DNA from: Psammoneis japonica
Taxonomy: Eukaryota
NCBI GenBank assembly: GCA_008632985.1
Contig: QPGO01000206.1
Span: 1 to 64,000, forward strand
Direction: 5' to 3'
Length of the DNA stretch: 64,000 bases
Position 1 is the first letter of the stretch, and every line of letters begins with the position of its first letter. The position numbers and the translations under genes were made by a program. The notes beneath the pieces are model-generated. The model was not told the origin of the DNA, ran no database searches, and saw only the letters and a list, made by a program, of their open reading frames with translations. Shown in pieces: positions 27,178-62,819 of this stretch.

Positions 27178-29050
27178 TTATCCATCATAACTCAAAACAA
27201 GCTTTCGGTTGTAGAAGAACTCATCCGAGTCCTTGACGATGTGCCCATGAGGCTTGCCTTGAGTCAGGGCAATGATGCGCAACTGCTCGTGGAAGCCGGA
27301 CATTTTCCCACCAATCACAACAATGGGATCGCCCTCTTGCAGCATGCCGGACTGGTACAACTCATAGTTCACCTCCTCCAAGAGTTCATCAGGATCGGAG
27401 AGCGAATCGACAACAATCGTGTGCATGCCCAATAGCAGCCCACTCGCTTGACGAGCAGAGGTGATGGTAGGCGTGAGACACATGATTCGAATTCCGGGAC
27501 GAAACTTGGCCACGTACTTGGCCATTTTCCCGGTATCACTCAACACAATAATGACCTTTGCTCCAATGTCAATACTTGTCTTGACAGCACTGCTTGCCAC
27601 AGACTCTCCCATGGTGAGTTTTCCGTATGTGCTGACAATAGAGTTGCGAACGGCATGGTACATTTGGTTGTAGTTTCGGCTCTGCTCAGCTTCACAGCAA
27701 GTGCGGGCCAAGACTTCCACAGCGTTCTGAAAATAAGCTCCATTGGCTGTTTCTCCAGATAGCATCACAGCCTTAAGGTAGGCAAAACAAGTGAGTGGAA
27801 GACTGATAATTTTGGTCAACACACACATCATAATTATCATGATAACTTACATCCGTTCCGTCGTAAACGGCGTTGGCGACATCGCTACACTCGGCCCTTG
27901 TAGGGCGGGGGTTGTTGATCATGCTTTCCAGCATTTGAGTGGCGGTAATGACGGGTTTCCCTGCGATGTTAGCACGGCGAATCATCATCTTTTGGGCCAA
28001 GAAAACCTTCTGCGGCGGAATCTCCATACCTGAACAAGAAGTAGAACAAACGAAACCAGATTGGTTGAAACGTAATCATTACATGGTAGATGCTCTCGTG
28101 CACTTGTTGAATCACCTACCCAAATCGCCACGGGCAACCATGACACCATTGGTTTCCTTCAGGATCTCGTCGTAGTTCTGCAAACCCTGGAGGTTCTCAA
28201 TCTTACTAATGATTGAGATCTGGGACCCGCCATTGTCAGTCAAGAGCTTACGAAGATTCTTAACATCTTGCGCGGTCCGGATAAAACTCGCCTAATGTTG
28301 AATGTTTAAACAAAAGATGTTGGCGTTCTTTGATACATGCTCGTGCTGAATGTGGGAACCACGTGATTCGCTGAAACTTACCGCGATGAACTCCACCTTA
28401 TTCTTGATTCCAAAGTTGACAATGTCATCGACATCCTTATCCGTGAAAGTTGGGAGGTCCACAACGACGCCGGGTAGATTCATATTTTTTCGCTCCCCAA
28501 TCACGGCATCGTTCTCGATGCGACACTCCACTTCGCCAGCATCCTCATCGACAGAAAGCACCGTCAATACCAGCGAACCATCCGCGACGAGAATCTGCTG
28601 ACCTTGCGTGACCGACTTGGCCAAGGTCGCGTAAGAACACGCGAGCTTCTTTTCATCACCTTTAAAGTCGTAGTTGGAGGTGAGCGTGATCATTTCGCCC
28701 TTCTTTAGGGAGATCTTACTGACCCCGTCAGCGAAGAAGCCGGTACGAATCTCCGGGCCCTTCGTATCCAACAGAACTGCAATGTTGCGAGACTTTTCAG
28801 CTGCAACCTTGCGGAGCCTCGCTAACGTCTCACCGTGAGTCTCGTGGTCGCCGTGAGAGAAGTTGAAGCGAGCCACGTTCATTCCGGTGTTCATGAGGGT
28901 GGCAAGTCCCTCTTCACTCCAGCATGCAGGCCCGAGAGTGCAAACGATTTTTGTACGGCGACTTTCGGTGGACGGCAACACCTTCTTGACCTTATCGAGA
29001 GTGATGAAGCCACCATGGAGAGTCGGGACGCTTGAAGTGTTGGAGATCAT
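27178..29050 (-). CDS. PK: Pyruvate kinase (multi-exon)
   Basis: [89 protein letters not shown]. Confidence 0.97.
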
Positions 29051-30371
29051 CGTCACGTACCTGGAAAACCCGTGTGGAAAGGTTAGCTTCGTGACTTGAC
29101 AATAACAACTGTAGCACGTTCCTTTTGCAACGTCGGAGGCAAAAGCAGTACTGTACAGAAGTGGAAGCCAACCTCCAACCGCTTCTTCCCTCTCGGTCAC
29201 GGAATTTTTGGAAAAAATGAGAAAGATGCAAAAAAGATCCGGATCTTTTTGTAGCACTATCGCACTGTACGTACAATGCTTACGTATCAATGTAGGGCGA
29301 GCCTGCCAGCCACGTGGACTGTTTACAGCAGGGCCTCTACTCTAGCTACCGTAGCTAGAGGGCCCTACATATTACGATTGATCCTACGTACGTCGATCCA
29401 TACCACCATCGACGTCAACAATTCGGCAATTTTTTCATATTCGTGGCCGGTTAACGGAAAAGGGAAAAAAGGAGGGGATTCAACCATTCGATGCACACAA
29501 AAATTGACCATGCAAGCAGGGCCAGAGATTCATTGGCTTCTTCTTTGTGGTCTGGGGTGGTTGCCGCAGGGGCAAAAGCTGGGTGCACATTGCAACTTCA
29601 GGGTGACCATTGGCTCAAAGGCTGCATCTGGGGAGGGCCAGGGAGAAGAAAAACACGCAAGCTTGGCTGCTTGCTTTTCAAACCCTGGTGTGTTGTCCTG
29701 AGCAAGCTCTTGAGAGAAGAGTGAGAGAGGTTCTGGCTGCATTGCTGTGCAGAGAGTTTTGTTGCTGGCATGTCTCAGGTTGTGCACTCAGCATGCTCAA
29801 TGACTCTTGGGCCCAACCTCACTCAGAGCTTTTTTGTGCCAACAGCAAGCTCAAAGTTGTTCTGCTGTGCCAACAAATGACAAACACGAGCTTGAGGAGG
29901 CTTGTGTGCAATTTTGCAGCTGTGGCATTGGGGGTGCCAATGACACAAGCTCCTGCCAGCTCCAACCTTGGCTCAGGGTTTTGGAGACACTGGTGTCTCT
30001 TGCTCAGCTGTGAAAAGCTGTGGCATGTGGGGTCAGCATGCAGCCCAGGAGCCAGGCTGCCTGCACTCCTTTTGCAGATGGTGCAAAGTGCTGTTGTGAC
30101 TGCACAAGGAGGGCAACTCTTGTGGTTGTGCTGGTGTTCTGAAGGTGTGGGTGTGCCCCTGGGAAGCTGCAAATGAAGAGCTCAGCATTGCCGCCAGCAC
30201 CAGATGTGCATTGCTGCCCTCTGTGTCTTGTGGTTCTGGGAGCCTGCAAACTCAAGTTGGGCATCTCAGCTGGTGCAGCTTGGCAGACCATCTTGATTGG
30301 AGCCTGGCATGGAGGAGGGAAACATGCAGAAAAGTTTTGCAGGAGCTATTCTGTCAATGGTGGCTGGGGCA

Positions 30372-30972
30372 GCCTGGGTTGTGGGAACTTTCTTTTGATG
30401 GAAGCCAAGCAGCCACAGCAAAAGAAGATGTTTTTGTGACTGAGCATCTGACAGACATGGTTTGCACACAGAGAGCTGTCCTCTGCTCAAGCTCCAGTGA
30501 GCAGCGTGCTCCAAAGGTGACATTGCACACGTGCTTGTGCATCAAAACATGTGCCTCTTGCTTCAGACCCCATGTGCAGCACGGCTGTGTGGAGAGGCTT
30601 GTTGCAGGCACATCTCACAGGAGGTCTCATGCTTGGCTCTCAACCTTGGTTTTAATTTCTCAGCTGGCAGCTCAGCAAACAGTCGTGACTGCAGCTTGGT
30701 TTGTGGGTGGCGCTGTTGCCAAGAACCACTCTGGGGGGGAGGGGACAAGCAGAAGGGTTTTGCAGGAGAGCTGTTTTGTCACGAGTGCTCAGGATGGCCT
30801 GGGCTGCTGCAGATTTTGTTGATGAAAGCCAAGCAGCCACAGTGCAAGAGAAGATGATTTTGTGATTGAGCATCTGAATGACAAAGCCCAGGCATGTGGA
30901 GAGCTGTCCACATGATCTCAGCTCCAGCAAGCAGCAGGCTCCAAAGGCAACATTGCACGGGCGAGCTCGTGT
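30372..30972. repeat. Diverged ~170-bp direct repeat pair (30372-30540 and 30797-30972)
   Basis: Both copies share TTGATG(G/A)AAGCCAAGCAGCCACAG, GAGCATCTGA, GAGAGCTGTCC and CTCCAAAGG..ACATTGCAC. Confidence 0.8.
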
Positions 30973-31436
30973 GCCAACAAGAAGCCTCAAGCTGTGAGTC
31001 ATGAAAAAGCCATCAACCTCCCAACCAGCTGCAGAGCCAGCCAAACCATGTGCCACTTGAGGGCCCAAGGTTCAAAACAAGAGGGGCGCATCAACTGTGT
31101 TCTTGTTTTGTGTGCTCAAGAGCCTTTTGTTCTCTCTGCAAGTCTTTGGCGTGTGCTCGCCTCTGTTGAGTGTGGATTGAAAGGATGCTGCAATGCCAGA
31201 TGGGTTGATTTGTCTTTGCTGCAAAAGGTGTGCATTGTCCACTTTGATTGGATGCCCATGCAGAGATCTGAAAACCAGCATTGTTGCGAGCATTGAATGC
31301 ATGGAGAGAACACCAATTGACGTTTCCAAATGAACATGTAAATGCTGCAGTCAACTGGTGCAGAAAACACATGATGATTTTGCATTTGACATCCTGTTTT
31401 GTCTGTTCGATTTTACTTGTGCCCACAACTCTACAT

Positions 31437-31560
31437 CGTCAACCATTTAGCTGTCTTTGTGCCGAAGTAGAAATTTTAATCAGGGGATTTCGTCAACCAT
31501 TTAGCTGTCTTTGAGCCGAAGCAGAATTTTTAATTGTGGAATGTCGTCAACCATTTGGCT
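31437..31560. repeat. 54-bp tandem repeat, about 2.3 copies
   Basis: CGTCAACCATTT at 31437, 31491 and 31545. Confidence 0.85.
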
Positions 31561-34470
31561 CACTTTGGCTCAAAGTAATTTGTCATGTGGGTCATGGGCT
31601 TGTCATTGACCAGCCACCATCATGAAATGACCAATGTTGCTGTTGCTCCAATGCAGCTGTTGCTGTTTGGTGTGTTGTTGCAACTTCAACACGGCACTTG
31701 CCATGGCAGATTTGATGCCTTTTCCACAAATGTCACACTTGACATGTCAATTTTGGAATGCAAGTGCTTTTTGGAAATGTGCTGTTGAGTGCTGCACTGC
31801 AGTGCAAGCAGCAGCATGTGCAAAATTGCTGCCGGTGCATCGTGGCTGATTTGAGAGCCGACGCACTCCCAAAAAAGATGGCAGTCCCCACACACTCACA
31901 AGAGCCACAGGTGCTGCTGCAAAACATGCAGCAATGTCCGTTGGAAATGAAAAGGAGCCTTGCAGCATTCTCAGCCTCACTTGCTTGTGCTGTGAAAGGT
32001 CTTGTTCATCATTGTTGTTGACATCATCCACAGCTCCATTGTTTGTTGAAAGAGCAAGCGACTCTTTTCCCACAAGCACACAGTGGCCAAGACAGCTCTC
32101 ACATGCAGGTCAGTCCATGGCATCAAAACTTCTGCAAGGTGTCACTTCTTGGTCACACCTGTTGCCTTGCCTCCATGAAAGTTGTTGTCCTTGCGCCTCC
32201 ATCATTCATGCCCTTGGTCATGGTTTTCTCCTTTTTCAAGTCAAACTTGGGTGGGACCTGGCACATTTGAAAGTTGAGTGCCAGGTGATCCTGAAGGTCT
32301 TGAAGCTGTTTCAAGAGTTTCTTCTGGATTGTCCCCAAACTTCTGCAAAATCCATGTGTTCACAACAAAGAACAGAACATGAGAAGGTTTGCTCAGCAAC
32401 AACTGCACACGTCCAGAGCAACAACAAGTGTGTGCATGGAGCTTCTTGCTCTGTTGCATTGAAATTCTGTTGTGGTGCTGGTTTGATCAACAGTGATTGT
32501 GGGGGCATCATTGGAATCTCAATGCCTCTCATGCTTGGCAAGGAGACAGCAACAGTTTGCACAGTCTCAATGCTGACAACGCCATCATGTTTTTTAATGC
32601 CGGTGATGGCAGAATGCAGAATTTGCTTTTTCATTGCACATGTTCAATGTCACAAACATTTTCACACCCTGGCAGTGAAGTTCATGCCACTGAGATCACT
32701 TGTGGACTCTTGCTCTGACTTGCTGTGAAAGACAGCACCAATTGTGGTGCACACTTTCTGCTTGCTTCACCTGCTGCATGCAGACTGCAAACTGCAGGTG
32801 CAAGAACAGGTCTGTGCATGTGGACCAGTGCCAGGAAAATGTTGCACAGACAGTTGCTGTGCAACAGCTTTGTTGCACACTGTTGCTCCACCCACTTGCT
32901 TGTGTGTTGCTGACTTTCTGGCAACACAGAATGTCTTCTCTTTCTTGCATGGTTGGACTCTGTCATCTTTGTCACAATGCCTGCATGGGCACCATGTCCA
33001 AGATTCTGACAGAACAGCAAATGACTGGCTGGTCTGGCACAACCTCAAGTGCAATGCAATGTGCCAAAAATTTCACTGTGCATGTCTGCCATGATGACAT
33101 GATGCACACATCCCAGACCCTTCCAGTGTGCTGAATGCAGCAAGATCAGCAGAGATGAATGACCCGGCATTGGCTGCATGCCCCACGCAAATTTGTCAGG
33201 TGTTGGCTCATTGCCTCATTGTTCATGAGAAGATCATTGTGCAAGCACTCCTCATGACGAATGATTTACTGTCAAAGTTGAGCAGGATTGGCTGTTTGTT
33301 GACTCTGCACTTTCACACATGGTTTTTTCATTTTAGATGCATCCTTGCATTCAGTTGGATGAGTTGGCGTTGTCACGTCATGCAACATTCATTGCCTGTT
33401 GTGTGTGTGTTGAGCCATGTCTTGGTCACAGAAATTTCTGGCAATCTGCAAACTGCAACAGCTGACACCAACAACTGTGCCATCCATCACAGACCCCACT
33501 CTCTGCTGTTGTTGTCCCTGTTGCAAGGATGTGGCGCTCCATTGCACCCTCTGTTCTCCCTCTCTTTGTCACAATTGACAAGCGTGGTTGCTGTGTGAGA
33601 AGTCATCCCAGAGGCTGTTTCAATTGTTGGAGTTGTGAAGCCACAGATTTGCTTTGGACTCTCAGAGGATTGGACATTGCCAGTGCTGAGATCCTTGGAA
33701 CTCACATCAATTGCATTTTCAGTGCTGGCAACAAAGAAGCCACCTGTCACTCTGTCCTGTGAAGCTTTTCCCCACATTTGGCTCATTTGAGGAGGTCCAT
33801 GGGAGGCAGGTGGCTTCAGTGGAGAAGAGTGACACATGTCCTCTTGGCCAAATGACGCTGGTTGTGGAGTGTCCCAGTGTTGATGCTCACCTGGGAAACC
33901 CTCTTTTGGAGTTGTTCTCTGTGGAAGTTGTCAAGAGGGCACTTCAGAATCCCTTGTTGGTGGATCCCCAAAGCCCCTAGACAGAGCTGACATTTGGCTC
34001 CTCAATTTTGCTTGAATGCACCACCTGCATGTTGTTTGCAGCTTTGGCTGCCTTTCCCAGACAAGGCATTTTGGTTGATGACACTGAGTTGTGCCTTTCA
34101 TTCTTGTGTGGCTGCAACTGCATGGAGTTTGTTTGTTCTCATCTTGTCCAGATGGACCATGAGTTCATGCTCAAGCTGCAATGTGGCATGAATCAGCTTG
34201 TTTTTTTCTTGCAATGTGTTTCCCTCCTTTTACAGACAGGGTCACTCTGCTGCAAAATCTTGTCATCACATGCAGCATCTGCAAAGTCACATTTGGCATG
34301 CCATCAAACTTCTTGCTGCCAATCTTCCTTGCTGCTGATCCCTTCAATTTGTCAGGTTCCTGCACCTCCATCATTGAGTTCTTGGTCACCAAACACCTCA
34401 AATTAAAGTCACTCACATCATCCAGCTTGGTGTTGTCACACAGGGCATTCCACCATCCATTTGCATGCTT

Positions 34471-34783
34471 TCTCTCTCTCTCCTCTCTCTCTCTCTCGAA
34501 CAACGAATGATCAAAATTGGCAAAGCCAATTTTCTGTCAAATGTGACAAACAACAGCAACACAAGTGGCCAAGGTGGAGCTGCTCAATCAGACATTCATC
34601 CAACCATTTCAGCAAATGGCAGGCACAACAATGTTGGCTGAAGTCAGGAGAATGAGACTTTTGTGGTGGCTTCATCAGCGGCCGGCTGTTGTTGTCATCG
34701 TGCGGTGGGCATTGTTGCATTAAAAAGATCCAAAGAAGGACAGACAGGTTGATCAAATCGATTCAATTCAAGTCAAGTTGTCA

Positions 34784-34817
<34 letters not shown>
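34471..34817. repeat. Two (CT)n microsatellites (34471-34497 and 34791-34817)
   Basis: Read directly from the sequence. Confidence 0.9.
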
Positions 34818-37516
34818 CAATTCTCTGGTTGGAAATTCCCTCATGTGCTCTGGTGCCATGTGCAGCCCCTCATGGCTTCTGTCCAAGTTGATGGAAGAAT
34901 GGTTGATTTTGCAGTCATGTGGAGCCTTGGGCCTGTGATCAACATGTCCATGGAGTGCTGTCCTTCAACAGGAGTCTTCTGATGCCTTGCAGGTTTCCCC
35001 ATGCTTTGTGGTGGCCTTGAACACCAAGCACTTTTTCTCTGCCTGCACAGGAACCACCATTTGATTGTTGCTGTTCATAAAAGACCTTCTGAAGTTGTGC
35101 AACTGGATCAAGAAAGACATGGGCATGCAACCATGCTTCTCTCCCACAGCTCCTGGTGTGCAGGACTGTTTGCAAAGTCACCAAACCTGCTGGCATCCTG
35201 ATGAGTGAGCTGGTGCACAGGTGCTTTGGTGTCTTCCAACACTGGGTGTCCACCAAACAGTGCAAAAATTCCATCAAACCCCAAGTGGTGTTTCTCAGGA
35301 ACCACTTGGAATCTGTCCAACCACCTGATGTCAAAGTTGCTTTCTTTGAAGGCTTTGTAAATCTGTTTTTCATCTGGCCAGTGTGGAGCTTGCTCCTCAC
35401 TCATGCTCAATGCATTTGACATGTGCAGCAGGGATTGTCTCATCAGCAGCACTGCTCTCCAGTGTTCCCTCTTGCTCTTTGCAGTTGTCCAATGGCAGAA
35501 ACTCACAAGCTCTGCTGTTGTCAGTCTTCACCTGTTGGACTCCAAAGTTGATGTGCTTTCCTGGTGATTGTGCTGCCAAATTCATGGCTTTGCACCTTGC
35601 AACTGGTTTGTCACAAGTGTCCTTCAGAATCTCATCTTTGTTGCATGGCATCACTTCACAACCATGGTTTTGCATGCTGGCAGATTGCTTCTTGTCACAG
35701 CAGAGTTTTTGTTCATTGCAAAATGCCTGGGTGGCCTCAATCTCTGCTGTGCTTTCTTTGTGATTGAACCTGTCACCAGCCACAAAAACCAACTTGGCAT
35801 GTTTCACCCTGGACTGCACATTTGCAAAGCACTGCATTGTCATCTCTCCAGGTGTTGCTGGGGAACCATTTCTCCTTCTCCTTGCAAGGGTCATTCTGTG
35901 AAGTGTGTTTGTGACAATGTGAACACCTTGGTGTGTGCTTCTTGGACAACGCAGCTGCGCAGTTGTGAAAGGACAATTGCTCAGCAGCAATTTCTTCTGC
36001 TGCCAACATGCACACCAATTTCTCACTTGTCTTTTTGTTTTGTTGCAACTTCTTCACCATCCAATTGCAAACAAACTCCATCACCAAATGTGGCTTCTGC
36101 CATGTCTGAAGCCACAGCTTTGCCCCAATTGGGAGCTGCATTTTCTTCAGCAGCAGCCACAGAAAATGCAGCCACACCCAATGCTGGGTCAGCAGCTTCT
36201 GCTGCATTCTCTGATGCCATTGTTTGTTGTGCACGCAACTGCACTTTGCTCCCTCACAGCAGCGGGTGGTGCTGCTTCCTTCCTCAGTTGTGTTTTGTGT
36301 GGTGGCAGTGAGTGCCAGTTTGTCTCTTGTTGGTGGTGGGTTGCTGAAACATTTTTTGTCAGATCAGGCCATTGCTGATCTGGCATTCAAGCACGCACAT
36401 TCCACTGCCAGTCATTTGTAAAATGATTTGTGGTCAACACCAGATCAGCCTTTTGCTGGTCTGGTGCTCCACTGTGGTTGCCCCCCAATCAGCCTTTTGC
36501 TGATCTGGTGCTTTCACTGTGCAGCACCAGCTGTGGGTCTCATGGAAGAAGATTTTTCATGTGGGTGAGCATGGCCTCTTCAACAGAAAACCCAGCTCAT
36601 TGCTGCTTGGGAAGAACCCCACTGCAGAAGAGTCCCATTGTCTCTTGGACAATGGCCATCTCTGGCTGTGTCTTTGTTTGACAATTGAGCTGATGCAAAG
36701 CACAATGCAAGGCAGCAGCACAATTGAGGCAGGAGTTGAGATTGCCATTGCCAACATGAACTTGGAAACTCCAGCTTGCAAAACATTCACAGCAAAACTG
36801 GGAAAACTTGCATTTTGAGTGCAAGGTGGTGTGGACTGCCCTCCTTGGCAAAAACTGACCAAGACACAGTTTTGTTGAGCATTTTGTTGTTTCCATCTTT
36901 CTCATTGGCCCAAACTCTGTCAGCACCTTCTGCCAACACTTTCATGAACCACAGTTGCCCCATTGTCACTGGAAGTTGCTTTCCATCATGGTGCTCATGT
37001 GCAAGATGATGCTGAAGAACCGCGGTTGAGTTGAGAGCTGCTTCCCCAACTCCTTTCTGTGAGCAAACACATGTTGCCTGTGAGTCTCTCCCATGCCTCA
37101 ACAACTCTCCTTGAACAGCAAACAGTGTGTCATTTGTCCTTTCAGAGGGGAAGATGAAATCACACATGACAATTGCCAACCTGTTGGAACACTCCAAACA
37201 GACACAGTGGAGTGAACTTCTTCTTGGGTTGATTTTAAGACCACACAAAGACATCCACCACAAAAAGGGCCATGTGGATCTGAGGGTCAATTGGAAGATG
37301 ATGATTTTCAAACAACAATTGTGTTTCTTGTGCTTCCTGAGGGTGAGCCTGGTCACAGTTTTTCTTGGAGATCAGCTTGAGTTCATTTGTGCTTGTTGGC
37401 AGTTCATGTGATTTAATTGCAAGCTTGTTTGCAATCTCTTTGTGCTGAAAACATGGAAGTGAAAACAATGACTGGCCTCATCTGCTTGCCAAAACACCGC
37501 TGCAAATGCACTTTGT

Positions 37517-38441
37517 GTTTGTCACATCCTCAGATGGCTGGCCCAGGAATTTCCTCATTCTGGCAGAAGCGTTGTGGTGCAAAAACAGACAACATCACAC
37601 CCTCCAAACATGCTGGGTGCTTTTAAAGTGTGTCCAAGGGATGGGGTGAGCCAGCCAAAGTCAAAAGAAGTCAGCTGCACATGTGTCCTTGGTGGCCCAA
37701 TGGGTGTTCATCACATCCTTGATGGCTTGCCAGGAATTTCCTCATTCTGGCAAAAGCACTGTGGTGCAAAAACAGGCACACTCTCCAAACACACTGAATG
37801 CTTTCAAAGTGTGACCCAGGGATGGGGTGAGGCAGCCAAGGTGGAAAGAAGCCAGCTGCACGTGTCCTTGGTGGCCTGATGGGTGTTTGTCAGATGCTCA
37901 GATGACTTGCCAGGAATTTCTTCCTCATTCTGGTGGAAGCATTGTGGTGCAAAACAGACAAGGTCACACTCCCCAAACACACAGAATGCTTTCAAAATGT
38001 GCCACAGAGATGGGGCAAGACAAACAAAGCAGAAAGAAGCTGACTGCTGTGTGTGTCCTTGGGGTGGCCTGATGGGTGTTCATCACATCTTCAGATGGCT
38101 CACCAGGAAATTCCTCATTCTGGTGGAAGCGTTGTGGTGCAAAAACAGACAAGGTCACACTCTCTGAACACACTGAATGCTTTCAAAGTGTGCTCCAGGG
38201 TGGGGCAAGTCCACCAAGGTAGAAAAAAGCCAGTTGCATGTGTCCTTGGTGGCCCAACTGGTGTGTGTTTGTCAGATCCTCAGATGGCTTGGCCAGGAAC
38301 TTCCTCATTTTGGCAGAAGTGTTGTGGCACAAAAACAGACAAGGTTGCACCCTCCAAACACACTGAATGCTTTCAAAGTGTGCCCCAGGGGTTGGGTGAG
38401 TCAACCAAGGTAGAAAAAAGACAACTGCATGTGTTCTTGGC
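37517..38441. repeat. Satellite-like tandem array: 5 diverged copies of a ~180-193-bp unit
   Basis: The CCAGGAA..TTCCTCATT anchor lies at 37543, 37730, 37910, 38103 and 38293. Copies also share TGTGGTGCAAAA(A)CAG, GAATGCTTTCAAAGTGTG and TGTCCTTGG. Confidence 0.92.
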
Positions 38442-41231
38442 ATCACAAGCAGTTGGCCATTTCAGTTTTTGGCAGGCAAAAGTCTGTCTGTCACCAAATG
38501 CACCCATTGCAAAGACCTTTGGACGTGCAGACTTTTTGGTGACACACAATGAATGATGCTTGCCAAACACAATGTGACAAGTCTGGCAAGGAGTTGCCAT
38601 TTTGGCTTTGACTGGAGAGCCACAGAAAACCACTTAAAGCCAACATTTAAAGCAAAAATTGTGGACAAGGTGATGACAAATGCAATCAAGCATTTTTTCT
38701 GGTCTGCTGTTCTGAAGCAAGGCAAATGTCATGATTAATTTTTTCCCTGAGGTTGAGCTTTTGATGATCCAGGAAACTTGCAATGGACAAAGAGCAACAG
38801 CTGAGAAAGCACTGGTGAAATTTGTTGCAGCTCTTCCTTCTGTTCCTGTGAAATGACTGAAACCAAACCAAGTCATTGGCTGGTGGTCCATCCCAATGGG
38901 TTGGAAGAACCAACCTGTGCAATGTCCATTGCCAGACCCTGCAACTCAATGGTTTTGTTGTGAAATTTCTGGCTGCTGAGTTGGCGAACCTTTTCCTTGT
39001 CAAGAGTGCAAGAACCTGCAAAGCTTTGCAAAAGAAAAAGGCTGCCTTGCACCACAAGTCAGGCCAGGTCCAGCCAACTGTTGTGCACCAACATTCGCTG
39101 GGAAAACATTGGGCAGAAAGGATCCTGGTGCCTGCAGGGGAAGGGTTGCAGGATGAGGTGCAGCAGCAATGATGTGAGGGCTGCATTGCACTGCAAGAGA
39201 TTGTTTGCAGCCAACTGCACTGCATCAATCCTTGGACAAGCAGTTTGATCACCCAATGACTGCACAAAGTTGAGAAGCTCAGCACAATGGGATGGATCAG
39301 CCCAATCTGTTGCCAGAAAAAACCTGCAGTTGGTTTTCAACAGTCTGACTGGAAAATGACATTGTGCAGCTTTTTTGCAAAAGGCACTTTGGATTTTTGC
39401 AGCTTGAATCACATGACAAAACAAGAAGCATCTCCTCCTCAAAGTGCTTCGCACACACCAGAAGAGACTCCTTTCATCAACCCTGTTGGTCATCTTGCTG
39501 TTTAGAAGGCTCTTGCTTTGTGCTCTGCTCTAAATTTGGTTGTCCACACACATCCATGTCTTGTTCCTCTGCCTGAGATGATGGTCATCCAAAATGTCAT
39601 TGGCAGTGCTTGCAGAGTTCTTCGGTGTGCTTCTCAGATGCACGCTCCTTCATGTCAGTGACAGGCAATCATTTTTGTGTCCTCTCTTTTGCCACCACCA
39701 ACAACAACTCACATGGGAAAGGCAAGTCTGGCTGGGAGAGTGACACCCAATGTCTGCTTGTTCACCTCTTCCACAATTTTCTTCTGGCCTTTCCACAAGC
39801 CAGTGTGAGACAGAGAGGTGCAAGCGGCAGGAACTGGAGGAGTGAGCTCCATGGTTTTTTCATGGACTGTGGATTGCCCAAGTTTTGCCAAAAAATGCTG
39901 TTGAATCTGCATCACAAGGGAGCAGGTGAACTGAGTCAATCCCTGTGACATGGGCACAAACCAGCAAGAGGTGCTGCAACAAATGAAGTTGTCACAAATC
40001 TCATCTTTGAACCCAGCCAAATGATGAAACCAACCACCATTGGTCTTTCCTTTGACTCTGAAAGCAAGACTCTTGTTCATGGAAAAGCGAGACAACATCC
40101 TCCAATCTTCAAACAAAATTTCAAAGTCTTCCACATGAGTGTCTTGGCAACCATCAAACAGGCTGCAACATGAGTTGCTGCAAAGACCTGCAGTGTGCAT
40201 CTGGCCAAACCATGAATGGCATGATTGACAGTTTTGCTCAGGACATGACGCGTGTGTCCCAAAGATCAGAAGAGAGCAAAGGTGGCTTGGAGTTGGCCTG
40301 ATGCCCACTGGCAGTGCTTTGTTGCTCAACCCATTTCACAAGGAGGTCTTTGTGTTTCTGCGTCAACATTGCAAGTTCAGTGTTCCAGCATTGTGGCATG
40401 AACTGGTGAAGGACACAACCCTTCCCCTGCTCTGACAAGTCAAGACAAGCTTTGCACTGGTCTCTGCAATTGCTGTTGTTTCTGAGCTTTCCAAACAGGA
40501 TTGAAAGAGCTCCTGCACAAATGTCAGCAAACCCCTTCTTGGTGGTGTTAGTGCAGCCCACACACTGAGCAGGATCACTGCTTGTGGTGTCAAGGACAGG
40601 TCACAAGAGATGTTGTCCACAAAAGAAGATTGCAAAGGCACTTTGAATGCCCTTCAACGATGAAAAACAAATCCTGGAGGGAGGGCTGTGAAACTGTGGG
40701 ACACTTGCTGCCACCTGGAGGGTGTGCCATGAAAATCACCATGGACTCACAATCACCCTTCATGGACAAAACCTGCCACAGCTTCTTGCACCAAACCTCA
40801 CAATTTTTCTCAGATGTGGGGGCACCTGAAAAAGCAAACCTGGGGAAAGCACAAAGCCTCCAAGATTTGTTGCCGGCTGCTGAGGATTCATTGACCTCAA
40901 CAAGTGAATCCCCAATGCAAGATTTGGCCCTGCAAAAGGTGTTTGCATGAGAGGAGCTGGGGTTGAGGAACATCTCATGATTGCCACCACAAGAATCAAG
41001 CCATTCCAAATCAAAGGGATAAAGGGAAAAACTGCACTTGGAGGCAACAGCTTGGAGGCCTTCCTTGACTGCATGCAAAAAGTCTGGAAGGCAAGAAGGA
41101 TTCCCATCATGAACAGACCACTTGCAACTGGGGTCATTTTTCCAGGGATGACCAGCCTGACATGCGATGGTTCCTTGGCATTGCAAATGCTGCTGCAGGG
41201 AAAGAGAACTTGCCTTGGTGTGCAGAGGAAG

Positions 41232-41235
<4 letters not shown>

Positions 41236-41269
<34 letters not shown>
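41236..41269. repeat. (AG)n microsatellite
   Basis: Read directly from the sequence. Confidence 0.95.
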
Positions 41270-41271
<2 letters not shown>

Positions 41272-41739
41272 GTGAAAGAGGAAGTGTGACAAAAGCAATT
41301 GGATCAGACATTCACTGATCTGGCACAAACAATCAGTGGGCTGCAACCGCATTAAAAAAAGAAGAGATCATCAAACCTCATGCATGGGTGATTGCACATG
41401 CAAATTGCCGTTGAACAAGAACACCAGTGCTTTTGTGCCAGACCGGAAGATTGCCAACTTGGTGCAACTCCATACGAAAATATCCACCTGTGCCAATGCC
41501 ACCATCGACGTCACCAATTCTCACTTGTCAGAGATTGGTCTTTGCCCCACTCAGTTCTTAGTCAAGACAGTGCGATGGGCCCAATCTCTAGAGTAGAGGG
41601 CCTGCAGAGAGTAGGGCCTCTAGAGCGAGTATTCTCTAGAGCAGAGACCAGAGCTAGAGAGATTGCCCCATACTGTATCATAGCTACTTGCTACAGTATC
41701 TCTAGCTACGAGATGTGGATGGATGAATCAAGATATGTG

Positions 41740-42163
41740 AAGTGCAATCTGAGCTAGAGCTGCTAGCATCGGTCCGATAGAGCAGAGAGAGTACCTCATC
41801 TTCTCTATTACAGGTAGAGACAGAGAGTTTTTGATCTATTGCCTAAAGGTAGCTGCTCTCTATTAGCTTCTTCCATCCGCGCTGCATGGCCCAACGCATG
41901 ACGCATCATGACGAGCAAAACGTGTGCAAAGTGAATTTATCACCAATACCATAACTAATCTCATCAGCCGTAGACAGTCATGAGCTCATCACATCGCTGC
42001 TGAATATCCAAGGAATTACACACTCACCACACACCAGTAATTTTCCGAACGTCCTTGAGCTTTGCGGCTTCCTCCAGGGCTCGATCCCACATGCTAGCCT
42101 CGCAAAACTTTCTTCGACCGAAATCACGTGGTCGATAAAACGCGTAGTGTAAGACACGTCTTG
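41740..42163 (-). pseudogene. Diverged duplicate of the VPS16 last-exon end and 3' flank (source 54242-54681)
   Basis: Colinear with the source; for example AACTAATCTCATCAGCCGTAGACAGTCATGAGCTC and SMWDRALEEAAKLKDVR occur in both copies. Small deletions. Confidence 0.92.
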
Positions 42164-42324
42164 AAAAGCAGCAAAGGGCTTCCCTCACCATTTTTGCTTG
42201 TGAAATGCTATTACAGGTTGGAGGTGACGGCATCTAAATTCTGACAGGAATACAGGTACAAAATACCCTGAAGTGCATAGAGTACCGCTGGCAACCCTAC
42301 CACCCCACTAGAGACAAAGAGAAT

Positions 42325-42790
42325 TACCAATGTCGTTGCTGCTCCAACGCAACTGCTACTTTTTGGTGTGTTGTTAAAATTTCAACATGGCACTTATGGT
42401 AGATTCGACGACTTCTTCCACGAACGTCACCCTTGATTTGTTAATTTTGGGATGCACATTCTTCTGAAAATGTGTGGTTGCGTGCTGTATTGTAGTGCGA
42501 GCGGCAACATGTACACAACCGCCATGGGCGTTATCGTGGCTGACTTGAGAGCCAAAGTACAAAGACGGCAGTCCCCGCACCGACAAGAGCCGTGGGTGCT
42601 ACTGCAAAACACGTAATGATTGTTGGAAAAAATGAGGAGACTTGTAGTATTGCCGGTCTTGCTTGCTTGTGCTGTGAAAGGCCTTGTTCATCGTTGTTGT
42701 TGCCATCATCCAGGCCTGAAAGTGCACACAATTCTCATCCGCCAAGCGCACCAAAGCCAAGATGGCTCTTGCATGTGGAAACATAGTTGT
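42325..42790 (-). pseudogene. Fragment of an unidentified, probably membrane-protein gene; unmutated paralogue of 31625-32110
   Basis: Colinear nucleotide similarity with 31625-32110. Peptides NNDEQ.LSQHKQ and CFA.AP.ALV occur in both copies. Confidence 0.6.
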
Positions 42791-43106
42791 CGGTGTTGTA
42801 GTACTGTACGGTCGTAGTTTGTGGAAAGGATGATAATAATGCATGCACAGCGAGAAATGAACAGGTCGTTGGTCGTTGTTATCCCCGTTTTTGTACATTG
42901 AGCCCTCATCTGCAAGTTCAGTTCAATCTGCAAAAAAGCAAAACAATGTACAGGAAGGTCCATGCACAGCGCTTCACAGTCAGTCTCTCCATCCTGTAAC
43001 GCGTTCCGTTGTTGTTAGCTGACAGAAACAACAAGCCTCCCTGCATTCGACACGGCGGCGTTCAGAAAGACGGGCCTCTGACATACAAGTTTTTCTCTGC
43101 CATATA

Positions 43107-43634
43107 CTATATTGGTTCCCTTGTCATAATTACGGCAGGAAACATCAAATCTGGTCCCATCGGCACATTATACTTTTCTTTTACCTCAAATCCGAGCGAA
43201 GTATAAAAGGTTTGTCCATTGAGGCTGGACCAGCACTCAAACTTGTAAACGCCGTCTTTCTTGGCGTCGTTGCAACAATTTTCAAAAATCAATCGCCCCA
43301 CGCCTCGTCTTGTGTAATTGGGATGAACTCCAAAATGACGAATGTGCCCAAGCCCAGATTCCATCTTGTTTGTCAGTGGATGCTCGTGCGTCCATCCCCC
43401 GCATCCAACAATGTTATCATCGTCCGTTGTTGCGACATAAAAAGTGTTGGTATCCAGTAGCTTTGGCTGTGCCTTTGTCATGGATGGCAAGGCTATTTGG
43501 AGAACCTTTTCATCATAGTGGCCAGCCATGAACTTTGGGTAACACGCTTCGAGCACTTTGTTGATTCCGGCCGTGTCTTGAGACGTTGCTGGTCTCACTG
43601 AGAATGCTGCTGCTGCTGCCATAGGAGGGACCAT
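43107..43634 (-). CDS. GNAT-family N-acetyltransferase
   Basis: Intact 175-aa ORF: FSVRPAT..D, IVGCGGW, HIRHFGVHPNYTRRGVGRLIF (motif A), SSLNGQTFYTSLGF. Confidence 0.92.
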   Translation of the reverse strand: MVPPMAAAAAFSVRPATSQDTAGINKVLEACYPKFMAGHYDEKVLQIALPSMTKAQPKLLDTNTFYVATTDDDNIVGCGGWTHEHPLTNKMESGLGHIRHFGVHPNYTRRGVGRLIFENCCNDAKKDGVYKFECWSSLNGQTFYTSLGFEVKEKYNVPMGPDLMFPAVIMTREPI

Positions 43635-46600
43635 TTTAAATTTTTATTTGAAAGATACTCTTTCGTTTTGTCTTTTTTTTGCCAGACGTGAGCCTTCTTC
43701 TTCAACCTTGCTTGCACACCTCGTTCAGTGTGATCATCGAGCGAGAGCGAAGAAGTCAAAAATTCTATTGACGCATGGACAGACCGTGTTGGAGGGAGTT
43801 TCTGAATTTTCGAAATCTTTAGTACGAATGCCTCTGTAGATTGTACGCGCGAGGTGTTTTTCATTGTGTTCGCCGTGCATCGAAACGCGTCTTTGATCGC
43901 TCTCGCAAATCGCAGAAACAGCGTTGCTCTCAGCTACGGCATCGTCTGAGCCCCAAAATAAAATACATCACAACAAACCAACAAGTGCACTGACATGATG
44001 TGCCTGGTCCCTTCTGTGGACTCGACTGACTGCTGTTGCAGTGACAAGCCTCGAGAGTCCACAAATGCGGTCACACCTGGCACATTGTTGACACACGAAA
44101 AAGGGCTCCAGTCCGATGAATTGATCACCCGTTGTTGCACGATTTGCCACATTGTAGACGAATCCAGTGTTGATGTTGAATTCTTTGTCAGTGGCTTCTT
44201 CCCCAACAAGGGACCAAGGATTGCTGCAATTCAAAAAAATTGTGAGGGATCAAAAGATGGAAGCGCTCACGCAATTGGGACCTGGACCTGACTTGTCACC
44301 TTTGGCGCGGGCTGCTTTAAAGGTGTTTTCAGTGCTTCTGAGCTGGGCACAATGAGGAGAAGTGGAGACTCCACAAGAAAGCAGAGGTTCAAATGTGTGC
44401 ACACACCTTTCCAAGGAATGACCATGAGCAACTGCAGCACACTTTGGCCACAGCCGGGCTGCAAAGAATGAACTCCATGCCGCAAAATTATGTTGCAGTG
44501 ATGCCTCATGTGGATCAAGCAGAAATGAGCAACATGCCAGCTTGAGCATTGCATCAAAGAACAGAAGGATTGGCGCTCCCCACCTCTGTTGTTGATTTTT
44601 CCTCTTGGTTGTTGCAGGGCTGACCCAGGAAGAAGAGTCACCAGAATGGGTTGTGGCCACTGTCTGTTTGGCTCACATTGATCCTTCAAATTTGCACCAC
44701 CAGTGTCTTCTGTTTTCAAAGAGGTGTTCAGGTCCTTGGCAAAAAGATGTGGACACAGAGATTGCAGCTGTGGTGCATCAGCTGGAAACTTGTCTGCAAA
44801 ATTTGTCAAAGGATGAGCCACAGACTCAGTGTGCAGTCATGCACCCCACTGTGACAGATTTGGGCTTCACAGTCTCATGGCAGGAGGATGCAATTGCTGG
44901 CTGCCATGCTGTCAAGTGTTGCATCATTGTGCACCCTGGGTGATGCCCGCAACCCACACATTCACAGGTGGCAGTTTCAAATTGATGCTTTTCAAACAAA
45001 CCTCATTTCACGCAGCAAAAATTTTTTGCACCTGTCTTGCAGCAACCCACTTTTGGTGAGGGTTGAAATGGAGGGCAAACCTCAAGCTTCAAAAAATCAC
45101 AATGCAGAAATGCACAGAATCAGTGCCACAAGTTTTCCATCACAGGAAAATCAGCTCTGCTGTGCTGAACTGCCAAGCCCTCACAATCCTCATGCTCTTT
45201 GCAGAGTTCCCCCCCTTGGTGCCATTGCAGCCATGCTTTTTGTGCCATCAACTCAACACATGCGCTCTTGCTCATGTGACCAACCCACCACCCAGCTTTG
45301 TTCAATGCATGATCTGAAGATGTTGTTGCGCATGATTGACGTTCATTGTCAAGGGTGTCTGTAAGAGCATCTAACAATGAGCACTTTTGTGGCAGGCGTG
45401 TTTGTCAGCCAATGTGCACATGCTTCAAACAACCTGCTTCTTGTTCCCATCACATTGTTCTTGACCAATGGTGACAGCGAGGGTTGAGTGTGGTGCATGT
45501 GACTGTGCAGCATGATTGCAAATGTGCTGTGTGTGCAACACACACAGGTTGGCAATGACTGATCACATGATTGCATGAGCTGCTGTGTGCAACATTCTCA
45601 CTCAGCAACCTCACAAATCGCCCACACATCTGCCTTCTCCAAGATGACATCAGCATGGAAACTGCACCCCAAATCCATTGGCAGTGCTCTGTGTTTGCAC
45701 ATGCATGATGCAAAACATGTCAGAATGGCAAGTGCTGTGGTCGTCAATGAGTGTCAAACTCAAGCTGATTCTGGGGGCATCTCACTCATCAAGCATGAGC
45801 ACATTTTGTGCTTGCAGATGTTTGCTGGTCATCCCTGACTCTCAGTTGGATGAAAACAGATGTTGCACATCTTTTGTGGACAAAGCCATTGGCACTGTCT
45901 TTGTCTCTGCATGCAGTGACAGCTCTGACAAAGTGAGCAAATTGTCCCATGGTGGCTGCACATGCTGGAGTGAGGCTGAAAGAAAAGCTGTGACAATGAG
46001 CTGCCGTTTTTCAAGAAGTGAGATCCCTGCAAGCCTCCTTGTGTGCAGAGCTGTGTCTCCAATGCACCATGCACATGGCCTCAACATCATTTTGTGCAAA
46101 GTTGTTTTTTCATGAATGTCGCGCAATCACATGGCAAACTCTTCAATTTTTGAAAACATGGAAAAGCCACATGAGCTGGTTTCTTGCCTGGCACATGGGT
46201 CCACTGTGTTTGATTGGTGCTGTCTCAATGCCAAAGATTTCCTCACAAGCATTGCACCACATTTGCTGCAAACCCACTTTTTCTTGCAGGTTGCTTGAAG
46301 CAGCTCCCCGCCCACCTCTGAAGAGAGCAGCACACTGAAATGAGCTGTTGCAGCAAGAAAATCACACTCTCTAGTCAGAGCTGTCTCCAGCTGCCATGTG
46401 CACTTCATCTCCCATTTCAGCTTGAACAGCAGCACTGCTTTTCTCTCACACAGAGCCTGGCTGCACTTCCAAGAGAAACCTTGCTGGAGGTGGCTGGAGG
46501 AGCGCATCATCACCAAACCATGAAAGAATGGCAAGAACTGCTGAAAACCCTTCTTGCTCTGTTTGGCAATTGCCTCTGACTGGTGTTCACAAATGAGCTC

Positions 46601-47309
46601 AAACAATTTGAGCACCAATTCAGCTGCTGCCTGGAATGCTGACAAAAAAGCCAATCTGGTCACTTGTGCTGGAACCTTGGAGAGGAGTTGCTGTGTGGCA
46701 CCACCCAAATTGCTGCCACAGTGTGGCCACATTTTGCCATCGTTTTTCCTGGGTGACACATTTCACCTGGCAGCATCCATGGTCACCACATTTTGCACAT
46801 CAGGCCACATTTGGAAACGTGTGTGAAATTGCACAATGGCAGTTCCTGTCATGCAGCAACTGTGTGGACCACACCAGATCTTGATCTTGTTGAAGTTGAA
46901 CTTCGGATGCATGATGTCATCATCTGCTTTGTGCCTTGTGAGTGGTGACACAGATCTGGTCAAATCCATGTGATCTCAGGGCATTTTTTGTTGCCCAACA
47001 AATGCCCCAATGCACAAGTTTCCTGATTTGCATTTGCTGCAGAAATCAAGCAGCATGGTGGCAAAACCAATGCAACATCAAACCAACAACATCAGCTGAC
47101 ACAACACACCAAGACACCATGAGTGTGAAGACCAGGAAGATGGTCTGGCAAAAGTCACAGACAAGGTGTCATCAGCAGACAAGCACTTCCGCTGCAACTG
47201 ACATGCTGCCAGATGTCTCCAGTGTGTGGGTGGATGAGTGCCTCTCCAAGGAGGGGTGGATTGGTGGTGTGGCTGGCACAACTCTCATTGAATGCCACAA
47301 AAGTCATTG

Positions 47310-47510
47310 CTGATTTGACAAAGGTGAAGGGCACGCACATGTTGCTGTGCAAGGCCAAGACACATGCCATGTTCTTTGATGGGGTGGCGAACATTCAGAA
47401 GGCCACAAGAATTGTCGAGGTGGAGTTTCCCTGGGTTTCCTGTCCACATGGTGCCAAGCATTGCATGGCACTTTTCTTTGAAGATGTGGCTTGGCTGAAA
47501 CCCGTTGATG
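47310..47510 (+). mobile_element. hAT-superfamily transposase fragment (DUF659-like)
   Basis: MFFDGVANIQKATRIVEVEFPWVSCPHGAKHCMALFFEDVA resembles the DG-A-N-x-K ... H-x-x-x-H-x-x-x-L-F-F-x-D segment of hAT/DUF659 transposases. Confidence 0.65.
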
Positions 47511-50500: not shown

Positions 50501-52544
50501 TCAGAATCCAATCCTCTTCAGATTCTTGCCTCCAAAATGAAGCTGGCCTCACACTCACACTTGATGTCATCTTTGGAGCCATGGGTGCATGTGACCTGTG
50601 GCTTGACACTGATGGTGTGAGAGAGCTGGGTCTCCAGCATTGAGTGCTTGGCAAGAAGCTGCTTGAGCCTTTCAGTGCGTGGGTGTGTCATGGTGGCAGT
50701 CCTCTCCCTGCCACACAGCAGCATCCACTCGTTTTTGCTCAACACCAGGCCTGGATTGGTGGGCCACATCACCACATCTGCAACCTTTGGGAGCAACTCT
50801 TGGTCAGCTGGTTCAACAAATTGAACAGCCACATCTTTTTCTTTCATGACTTTCTTGACCAACTCAATGGAACCAGACAGACAGGCAGCTCTGAGAAGAG
50901 CAGCTTTCAATCTTTGCTGTTTTGCAAAACTTTGAGCCCACCTTTGACCAATCAATGCAACTGCAGTTGAGAAGACTGACTTTGAACAACTCAGTTGTTG
51001 CACAATCAACCTCCTTGGAATGAAAAAAAAGCAGCTTTGATTGCCAAATCAATGACTTCCTTTGACTTGAGGCACCGGCAAAGTCTCACAATTTTGATCA
51101 GTTTTCCTTTTTGAAATGGTTTTGGAATGTTTCATCTGGTCTTGAATGAAAAGAGTTAATTTTGGCGACCAGCATTTTGACAAAAGTGTTCTGGCATGAC
51201 ACCCTCACAAGCTTCTGCAACAAATCTGCAGTTGTGAAAAGCAAACCTTGCTTGGCACCAAACAAAATCTCAGCAATGCACAGCTCATGATGGTTTCACA
51301 ATCAATCACATCCATGATGTGCAAACAAACAATGAGGTGCAATCACTCCGCCCACACCATTCCAATGGAAGCCATGGGCCAAGCTTGAATGACATGGAAG
51401 ACTTCCAAGGGGAAGAAAAAAGCAGGCAGCTGACGGGTGCGGAGCTTGAATGCAACATGCAGCTTTCAAGAACATCTCCAATGGCATCTGCTTGTTCAGG
51501 TGGCTGCCATTCCAAACAAACATGGTGCCCCCAACGTGTGTTTGCTTGACGAGTTGACAGAGTTGACTGGTGCCTTGGGACCACACACACCATGCAAAGG
51601 CATTTTGAGACTGTCACATTTGCCAGTTTTGCCGGAGCTTTCTGGATGGTTGCCAATTTACATGCATTCAAATGAATCAAGACTGCTCCAGTGGTGTCAG
51701 GGTGAGTGCTCCCAGCACACTCACTGCACAGGTGCCATGCAACAGATTGCCAGCCAGTCTTCAAATGAGTGGCTCTTCGTCAATGAGTGCTCAGGTGACA
51801 AGAGAAAACATCCAAACAACAGGGAGTGCAATTCTTGGAAGTGCCGTTGCACATCCTGCTGTCACATTGTTCCCAATGTTGTGGAGAGCAGTGGCCACAG
51901 AGAAAATCATCTTTCTTCCATGTTGGGTTGCAAGCATCAGAACCTCCATCCAAAGACCATTTGTGGTGCTCCAAGGAAAAGTCGAACGAATGTTCACTCC
52001 AAACCCGGTCATTCCTTGCACTTTTTGGAACACTTTGCAGCACAGGAACCTTCAGATGGACATTTCACAGACCTGTTTTCTGGCATGACAAGAAAATCCT
52101 CAAACCAAATGCTGCATCCTTGGAAATGACACCCAGTCACATGTGACAAAGCTGATGTGAGTGATGGCCTTGGACTCAACTCTGGTCCTGTGAGGGGCAG
52201 TTAGAGAGTGAGTGTTTTTTTTCATTCTCAACATTTTTCATCCAACGTCTGTTGGCAATTGACTCATGTTGCTGCTTTTGCTCTGTGATTGTGGCATGCA
52301 CCTGAGCAGTCCATTCAACATGAGGCATCTGCCATTGGATCCACAACTGCGAGAGAGATTCCTTCTGATGGGAGAAATGCGTTCGTCTCAGATGAGGATC
52401 ACGTCCAAGGCAACGGCACCCAAGGTGGCCTCTGCATTGCAAGATGCCTTTTTCAACTCTGATGCATTTGCTTCAAATCAACACAGCGAGGTGTGTGCAC
52501 AACAACTGGAGGAGGATCATGCAAGTGTTTCCATCCCAGATGAT

Positions 52545-62460: not shown

Positions 62461-62819
62461 TTGCAAAGTGACGGAACTGAAGCAGTAACAACTGGGGGAA
62501 CGACGACGGTCTAAAGTGAACGACTAACTTCAAACTGTATGTCGATAGCTTCGAAGGTACAGCACAGGGCGCCGCCGTAATGTTACCGGTGCTACCGGGA
62601 CTACCGGTAGGTGCAGCGCGCTGTGCTGCTGTCCGCTAGCTGAAGATTTTTGATGAACGCTGGACAGACACGTCTTCTTTTGCAGCAGGCCAGCGCGCTG
62701 GCTGGAGACTTCCCAGTCTTCTTCCGTACCACTTACAGACCTCCCAGAAGGGAGTGGAGATCTCGAGACGCTTTACTTCCCCAATTCCATACCGGTACAT
62801 CCAACAAACTTTCACCACC

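Follow-up and report, generated by a model that had tools for sequence, protein, structure and literature searches.

Loss of TA and CG dinucleotides by transitions in four bounded blocks of a diatom contig

The DNA window considered here, 64,000 nucleotides of contig QPGO01000206.1 of Psammoneis japonica (assembly GCA_008632985.1), contains four blocks, B1 to B4 (Table 1), from which TA and CG dinucleotides have been lost in place. The loss is symmetric between the strands, proceeds only by transitions and is limited to bounded domains; TA is lost faster than CG, and with a preference for certain flanking bases. We read the blocks, with a probability of about 0.6, as the product of local transition mutagenesis that acts in place on both strands and whose reach is limited to silent DNA, intergenic or derived from transposons. 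The source of the window is an intron-poor diatom, as judged from the relatives of its pyruvate kinase open reading frame (ORF).

Composition of the depleted blocks

The four blocks together (29,875 bases) hold 91 TA and 429 CG, with observed to expected ratios (o/e) of 0.05 and 0.24. The 34,125 bases outside the blocks hold 1300 TA (o/e 0.57) and 2007 CG (o/e 1.0). TG and CA each have an o/e of 1.79 in the blocks versus 1.15 and 1.17 outside. Base composition is equal inside and outside (block G+C is 0.48-0.51), and the other twelve dinucleotides are hardly changed. Scaled for length, the blocks lack 1047 TA and 1328 CG, a deficit of 2375, and have a surplus of 2341 TG plus CA. Since deficit and surplus are so close, nearly all of the loss has occurred by transitions to TG or CA. 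This book-keeping is as predicted for window-like DNA in which single transitions turn TA and CG into TG or CA, and it leaves almost no room for transversions. TG (3416) and CA (3251) are about equally common in the blocks, so both strands are hit alike.

An earlier note on this DNA had reported a single hypermutated block around one copy of a repeated sequence. That block is real: 500-base bins from 29501 to 41500 contain 0-6 TA and 0-9 CG, versus about 10-36 TA and 18-44 CG in normal bins. It is one of four in the window.

A shared sequence inside and outside a block

A sequence of about 470 bases occurs both inside B2 (the inside copy) and 10.7 kb away in normal DNA (the outside copy). By blastn and by comparison of 28-mers reduced to purines and pyrimidines, these are the sole inside/outside homologues in the window. 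Comparison of the window with itself by blastn pairs 31626-32030 with 42322-42712 (75.7% identity over 407 bases, E 2e-73), and MAFFT stretches the homology to about the limits given in Table 1. In columns 77-562 of the MAFFT alignment, to which all counts for the pair refer, 456 bases are aligned, with 348 identical (76%), 81 transitions and 27 transversions. Strings quoted in the earlier note, at 31789-31821 and 42482-42514, stand at those coordinates, and its other two examples are present in the alignment.

None of the 14 TA of the outside copy is retained inside; nine are CA, four TG and one GA. One of its 21 CG is retained, and the rest are TG (9), CA (8) or something else (3). The remaining 14 dinucleotides are retained at 263 of 412 positions, with a range of 37% to 77%. 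The earlier note had proposed just this comparison of TA and CG with the other dinucleotides, and retention of 1/35 versus 263/412 gives a Fisher p of 2e-13. Double transitions also occur, with 5 of the 52 TG of the outside copy read as CA inside. Composition here follows place and not sequence family, as the note had held for TA, because the inside copy lies in a depleted block and its homologue has near-normal TA and CG.

One dinucleotide of the pair, at 32059-32060, has three states: the outside copy reads CA, the inside copy of the window CG, and a contig of a public DNA run (X1, described below) TG. These states would be a path from CA to TG by way of a short-lived CG.

Duplicates outside and tandem repeats inside the blocks

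A control pair of similar size lies wholly outside the blocks. X' comprises the true 3' end of the Vps16 gene with the DNA downstream of it, and X is a decayed duplicate of that stretch. Identity between the two is 89%, and the substitutions comprise 22 transitions and 24 transversions. Retention is 18 of 24 for TA and 20 of 22 for CG, together 38/46, and 304/376 for other dinucleotides, which is no difference (p = 1); a further count for other dinucleotides, 261/315, is alike. X has kept its TA and CG over about 11% divergence within 400 bases of the edge of B2. Duplication and age alone are therefore not the cause of the loss. X is 12.5 kb to the left of X', and each is found directly to the right of a depleted block.

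Repeats within the blocks have diverged where they lie. In B4, 381-base tandem repeats that are 97-98% identical differ, in their well-aligned part, at eight sites, all of them at target steps: two TA~TG, four CG~CA, one CG~CT and one adjacent CA~TG double. At two of these sites, Arg codons in one of the repeats have become TGA and TGG. A 190-base tandem array in B2 has units that differ mostly by TG-versus-CA flips; among its five units, the dinucleotide columns that vary are most often {CA,TG} (9 columns, plus one of {CA,CG,TG}), and the only other type of double transition is {AA,GG}. Such differences would be expected if ancestral TA or CG were resolved independently in each unit, or if new TA and CG were quickly pushed to TG or CA.

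Where block DNA is compared, transitions also exceed transversions away from TA and CG: the ratio is 22:3 in the pair, at sites that belong to no pyrimidine-purine step, and 50:12 among the 190-base units, against 22:24 in the control pair. A weaker, context-free transition pressure may also act in the blocks.

Sequence context, borders and order of loss

Loss of TA depends on the neighbouring bases. Relative to normal density, residual TA is 0.48 in TTAA, 0.29/0.15 in TTAG/CTAA and 0.19/0.12 in GTAA/TTAC, and 0.00-0.06 in most other contexts. A strand-symmetric product model fits well and gives TA retention factors of 0.71 for TAA, 0.29 for TAG, 0.20 for TAC and 0.065 for TAT (likelihood-ratio chi-square 109.7, 3 degrees of freedom). 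No effect of context was found for the residual CG of the blocks.

The borders for TA are steps. The border for CG is found hundreds of bases inside that for TA at the left of B1 and at both ends of B3, and CG lags all through B4. For example, at the left of B3 the TA border is at 43964 and the CG border at about 44308, and at its right CG returns at about 52000-53733 and TA at 54047. At the left border of B2, TA recurs at intervals of 5-30 bases as far as 29452 and is then missing for 895 bases; CG stops at 29455. The densities of TA and CG relative to normal are 0.09/0.35 in B1, 0.075/0.11 in B2, 0.055/0.175 in B3 and 0.14/0.69 in B4. TA loss is ahead of CG loss, because the relative density of TA is below that of CG in every block.

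The blocks stop 150-500 bases upstream of gene starts, those of pyruvate kinase (29290), GNAT (43643), HSP90 (62754) and DNA polymerase alpha subunit B (near 10495-10664). Neither tRNA genes nor Rfam families were found as border elements. Two islands of normal DNA interrupt the depleted sequence. The larger separates B2 from B3 and includes X, the outside copy and the GNAT gene. The smaller lies within B2, to the left of the inside copy; it has a high summed depth of X1 contigs (411 in its bin), loose ends and several length variants, and is probably a young multi-copy insertion.

Dead coding sequence in the blocks

Nothing was recognized in B2 or, apart from an open frame at its right margin, in B3. 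Domain searches covered 257 block ORFs, namely all 120 of at least 100 amino acids and 137 of the 188 with 60-99 amino acids. In the longer class three had weak Pfam matches, all below the cut-offs (RVT_2, RhaT and DUF294_C), and in the shorter class there was one weak match, to zf-FCS. Decayed paralogues of window genes were not found inside the blocks in a tblastn search with 21 gene ORFs. Compared with the window genes, the block ORFs are poor in Tyr (0.11% vs 2.52%) and rich in His (4.7 vs 2.4), Cys (5.5 vs 1.8) and Trp (2.2 vs 0.8).

B1 contains a putative remnant of a Copia-type reverse transcriptase (P0123). Among its 30 protein-atlas feature matches, 27 are RVT_2 clusters, with a best score of 0.96, which is a lead only. 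Solved structures gave nothing better than E 1.5, and repeat and self-blastn searches of the window found no long terminal repeat pair for the element. The remnant has a Cys at what we take to be the conserved Tyr of the Copia LYGLK motif. The 471-codon frame at the right margin of B3 (P0121) matches no Pfam family and no homologue, with atlas scores of at most 0.76, and may be a recently engulfed gene. The tandem repeats of the broken gene in B4 look, in our own reading of the translation, like the leucine-rich repeats of ribonuclease inhibitors, with no family match; ORF 61796-62533(-) in B4 had one weak match (E 9e-4) among 1.84 billion representatives.

Sequencing runs and assembly

Two sequencing runs bear on the window. 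Run X1, a public DNA run, contains 74% of the sampled words of 29000-33000. Its contigs over B2, the longest of 3025 bases, each differ from the window in 2-10 letters and are depleted alike, and a 5323-base contig matches 44175-46000 of B3 with no differences. Overall X1 and the window have 113 differences in 18 kb, of which 86 are transitions. Among the 40 of these 113 that were listed, the window has TA or CG and X1 has TG or CA at seven, the reverse is found at six, and four fall in two adjacent CA>TG doubles. The differences may be alleles, strain differences or assembly errors.

The depth of X1 is about 53-65 over most of B2 (32229-41935) and about 124-128 over the island and the start of B3 (42067-46000). 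It may be that only one haplotype carries B2, or that the two haplotypes are strongly dissimilar there. High summed contig depth over 29202-31605 and 34010-35211 shows that these parts of B2 have similar copies elsewhere. The parts at 31606-34009 and 35212-41822 have no extra copies at 90% likeness or more, a setting at which older copies are missed.

Run X2, recorded as 'DNA?', is read as RNA, because one of its contigs skips two 90-base CT..AC stretches of the pyruvate kinase gene (28027-28116 and 28291-28380), which we read as GT..AG introns on the minus strand. A 1551-base contig of X2 (42067-43616) spans the GNAT ORF and the outside copy, and one contig is no proof of one transcript. None of the runs listed as sharing words with the window is recorded as RNA. 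Cover by X2 is nearly absent in the blocks; this was not used as evidence.

Direction of change and alternative explanations

Several points weigh against local mutagenesis of silent DNA as the source of the blocks. To our knowledge no enzyme removes TA in this way, and all of the compositional evidence comes from one 64-kb window. X1 is possibly the sample of the assembly itself; its contigs therefore rule out consensus error and do not provide independent biology. No transposon domain was found in B2 or B3 among the block ORFs searched, and a transposon origin is supported for B1 only. The left border of B2, where TA and CG both end within five bases, resembles a junction of sequences or a target set by homology more than it does spreading chromatin. 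The normal stretch of 240 bases within B2 is either young or a sign that the domain was not wholly hit. For the pair, the window holds no third homologue, whether by blastn or by the purine/pyrimidine 28-mers, and thus no outgroup. Moreover, 30 of the 115 TG and CA of the inside copy are TA or CG outside, with transitions at 12% of sites outside any pyrimidine-purine step; this is compatible with 0.24 (binomial p = 0.33) if all divergence is on the outside lineage, as reverse polarity would have it, and gives p = 3e-5 if divergence is split evenly between the lineages.

The direction of change in the pair has to be judged from rates. Homologues at E <= 0.001 that might polarise block changes at the protein level were found neither for ORF 60152-61138(-) nor for P0121. 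A metagenome locus, L001, was the sole match to a 21-base stretch common to both copies; it has low G+C and no further blastn or tblastx similarity, and was rejected as a chance match. The sequence could have been born in depleted DNA and copied to the island between B2 and B3, with the outside copy regaining TA and CG by ordinary mutation. This reversal, which would concern the pair only, has in its favour that the island is a patchwork of copied pieces and that TG and CA are somewhat frequent in the outside copy (52 + 34 in 447 dinucleotides). It is nevertheless improbable. The outside copy has 35 TA plus CG, 81% of normal density, and a regain model constrained by the transitions elsewhere allows at most 19.5 expected, or 45% of equilibrium (P about 0.001; 1e-8 if the divergence is split evenly). 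From this rate argument and the evidence within the blocks, it is likely but not proven that the inside copy lost its TA and CG. The earlier note had called the pair 'before/after'. The inside copy is indeed depleted and the outside one near-normal, and the order in time that the name implies is likely.

A different account of the blocks as a whole is a defence induced by repeats, like the repeat-induced point mutation (RIP) of fungi and with a new specificity. Duplicates above a length threshold would suffer TA and CG changes to TG or CA, with some leakage, and the blocks would be former repeats. The outside copy and X would have escaped as short fragments (about 450-470 bases), and the inside copy would have been part of a long repeat. 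The earlier note had set the pair apart from RIP since only one partner is hit; the chemistry and the one-sidedness hold, and a repeat-triggered process with a length threshold is still compatible with them. Such a process would suit the razor-sharp border where TA and CG end (29452/29455), the B4 repeats that differ only at target sites, the parts of B2 with similar copies elsewhere and the reverse transcriptase remnant of B1. Diatoms also carry DNMT4 enzymes, which are relatives of RID, a factor of fungal RIP, and are reported to be of unknown function (PMC9998398). We nonetheless find this explanation unlikely, if a serious one. One partner only of the 470-base pair was hit, and the 447-base X/X' duplicate was untouched. 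Most of B2 is without extra copies at the likeness searched, and the multi-copy island at 31339-31576 is unmutated. TA is near zero even where CG is undecayed, and changes are found between near-identical sequences; both suggest that the process went on acting after the DNA had ceased to be a repeat.

The remaining alternatives fare worse. Selection against TA and CG in the blocks, for example to avoid a nuclease, TA-targeting transposons or a binding protein, would explain a depletion that is near-total and has sharp limits. It is very improbable, as the DNA is non-coding or dead and thousands of sites in junk DNA would need selecting; the random choice of TG or CA in sister repeats and the lagging loss of CG fit mutation pressure better. 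Just as little can be said for editing before integration, in which the RNA or cDNA of retroelements is hyper-edited by ADAR-like or APOBEC-like enzymes and inserted already mutated. The remnant in B1 and borders that resemble insertion junctions speak for it. The blocks lack the strand asymmetry that it predicts, their tandem repeats, once duplicated, came to differ at target sites where they lie, B4 is what is left of a cellular gene and not a retroelement, and CG loss is graded at the block margins, so that we hold this route to be extremely unlikely. The same low standing is given to an artefact, either assembly error or modified bases misread by a long-read base-caller. Such miscalls would be right in kind (A as G, C as T) and would track modified domains, and X1, as noted, is not a fully independent check. 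X1 contigs nevertheless carry the same depleted sequence, without a difference over 44175-46000; misreads on both strands would conflict and not give a clean TG or CA at each site; and the surplus of TG and CA matches the deficit of TA and CG. The more specific case of a modified A read as G on each strand was discarded, with TG and CA both raised on one strand and the B3 contig free of differences.

Likeness to known systems

Fungal RIP and CpG decay are the main known cases of hypermutation aimed at particular stretches of DNA. RIP, in Neurospora and other fungi, resembles the present case in its dense dinucleotide-specific transitions in DNA, in sharp segments, in killing transposons and the genes engulfed with them, and in that it can leak. 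It differs in that C becomes T mainly at CpA, which makes TpA and lowers G+C, whereas the blocks have a TA o/e of 0.05 and the G+C of the DNA outside, half of their changes being from A:T to G:C. RIP also hits both copies, unlike here, where the outside copy, with 14 TA and 21 CG, is normal and X/X' is untouched. RIP is fungal, and these blocks are from a diatom.

Decay of methylated CpG, as in vertebrate genomes, shares with the blocks the change of CG to TG and CA in equal parts (9 and 8 in the pair), in silenced DNA, and the nearby genes with a CG o/e near 1. It is limited to CG, whereas in every block the loss of TA is more complete than that of CG, and it is also faster; a CG o/e of 0.0-0.2 over 10 kb is also more extreme than usual. 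In another diatom, CG methylation restricted to transposons is attributed to DNMT5a (PMC9998398).

Hyper-editing by ADAR (A to I in double-stranded RNA) or APOBEC (C to U in cDNA) likewise produces clustered transitions of the deamination type and inactivates mobile elements. These enzymes act before integration and asymmetrically on the strands, whereas the changes in the blocks are symmetric, in place and found in a cellular gene as well. Edits made before integration would be shared by copies that arise in place, whereas a given dinucleotide can be TG in one tandem unit of the blocks and CA in another. ADAR disfavours a 5' G and prefers a 3' G; the order of TA loss in the blocks, TAT > TAC > TAG > TAA, is different.

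Thymine is hydroxylated at TpA in some protists, to 5-hydroxymethyluracil in dinoflagellates and to base J in kinetoplastids, on both strands and in silent or repeated DNA. Such a modification could mispair and lead from T to C. We know of no genome from which it has erased TA, and it is not known in diatoms, for which a full-text literature search found no report of it. Further full-text searches gave no paper in which diatoms or other stramenopiles lose TA and CG jointly. We class the process in the blocks as targeted hypermutation of silent DNA, in which the CG half resembles methylation decay at an extreme and the TA half has no counterpart known to us.

Possible mechanism

In the mutagenesis that we favour, the blocks would be silent intergenic DNA, derived in part from transposons and in part from dead genes. 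Local mutation would act on this DNA where it lies and is probably still ongoing. TA and CG, the self-complementary pyrimidine-purine steps, would be changed to TG or CA by single transitions on either strand equally, and the process would halt at the sharp borders upstream of neighbouring genes. The pair would then represent one copy decayed inside a block and one kept safe in a transcribed island. Coding capacity would be lost as Tyr codons become those of His or Cys and CGA becomes TGA.

Two coupled activities may share one domain. Loss of CG would be the deamination of methylated cytosine in methylation-silenced DNA. Loss of TA would be a separate and faster reaction, either deamination of adenine at TpA (to hypoxanthine, which is read as G) or a modification of thymine at TpA that mispairs with G; both are proposed because the outcome is transition-only. 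Error-prone synthesis by polymerase eta at WA motifs was rejected, because transversions and a depletion of AA would be expected; the changes are almost purely transitions (2375 vs 2341) and AA is not depleted. Targeting may be by chromatin state, by guide RNA or by homology. Chromatin would agree with CG lagging at the margins and with the transcribed island being spared, and homology or guide RNA would fit the border that is sharp to five bases.

More tentatively, the blocks may reflect an undescribed genome defence of diatoms, one that marks silent DNA and converts A to G at TpA enzymatically, by deaminating adenine in double-stranded DNA, along with C to T at CpG, with no need for a second copy. 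If this were true, such a defence would remove Tyr codons and TAA and TAG stops from anything that the domain engulfs.

Genes and features of the window

The long ORFs of the normal DNA encode, by Pfam, pyruvate kinase, HSP90, Vps16 (ORF 55966-56883, Vps16_N 8.5e-43), TruB, a DnaJ protein, a FYVE protein, DNA polymerase alpha subunit B and a GNAT acetyltransferase. The best relatives of the pyruvate kinase ORF are from diatoms, with identities of up to 80% among top matches from MMETSP transcripts and other sources. Named matches, at 70-77% identity, are mostly raphid pennates, e.g., Fistulifera, Nitzschia, Seminavis and Craspedostauros. The gene for the DnaJ-domain protein has an internal duplication of 1.4 kb (18061-19462 vs 19660-21081, with 66% identity in DNA and 42-45% in protein). 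It covers ORFs 16688-20404(-) and 20326-21471(-) and has a normal TA and CG content.

Table 1. Positions of the depleted blocks and other features in the 64-kb window
Feature	Positions	Strand	Remarks
Block B1	6255..10166		TA-free core from 6539, with 13 TA and 75 CG in 3628 bases; CG loss lags at left margin, 6255-6900
Putative Copia-type reverse transcriptase remnant (P0123), in B1	7170..7769	+	Pfam RVT_2, E 0.0079, 16.3 bits, below curated cut-off of 31.6
Pyruvate kinase gene, normal DNA	27178..29290	-	Pfam PK 2.3e-64, PK_C 8e-24; start codon 162 bases from left border of B2
Block B2, contains inside copy	29452..41353		34 TA and 78 CG in 11902 bases
Small island of normal TA and CG, in B2, left of inside copy	31339..31576		54-base tandem repeat (2.4 copies)
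Inside copy of shared sequence of about 470 bases	31622..32105	+	blastn and MAFFT; within B2
190-base tandem array, in B2	37515..38440		4.9 units, 79% matches
Island of normal DNA between B2 and B3	41354..43963		2.6-kb patchwork
X, decayed copy of Vps16 3' end and downstream DNA	41735..42163	-	blastn; TA and CG retained
Outside copy of shared sequence of about 470 bases	42318..42790	+	blastn and MAFFT; no long ORF; under the 1551-base X2 contig
GNAT acetyltransferase gene	43107..43643	-	Pfam Acetyltransf_7 1.3e-12
Block B3	43964..54047		21 TA and 104 CG in 10084 bases; CG back from about 52000, TA absent to 54047
471-codon open frame (P0121), right margin of B3	52396..53808	+	74-residue internal repeats; 36-residue module repeated twice; no Tyr
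X', true Vps16 3' end and downstream DNA	54237..54681	-	Stop near 54472; normal DNA
Block B4	58226..62486		TA nearly gone (23); CG partly lost (172; 69% of normal density)
Broken gene with 381-base tandem repeats, in B4	61091..62533	-	Repeats 97-98% identical; frame change; in-frame TGA

Significance

Homology searches fail on the DNA of the blocks, because the 257 ORFs searched gave four weak domain matches and none at a curated cut-off. The process would bear on the annotation of intergenic DNA in diatoms, as well as on the taming of their transposons and on the death of genes that lie beside silent DNA. The pair, the tandem repeats and the graded margins form a natural time series from which the process can be measured. 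If a DNA adenine deaminase is responsible, the enzyme would be directly relevant to base editing; present adenine editors were evolved in the laboratory for want of a natural one. Removal of TA by changes from A:T to G:C would be a new mutational chemistry in major marine primary producers, one more efficient than CpG decay, with limits sharp to the base pair and no need of a second copy.

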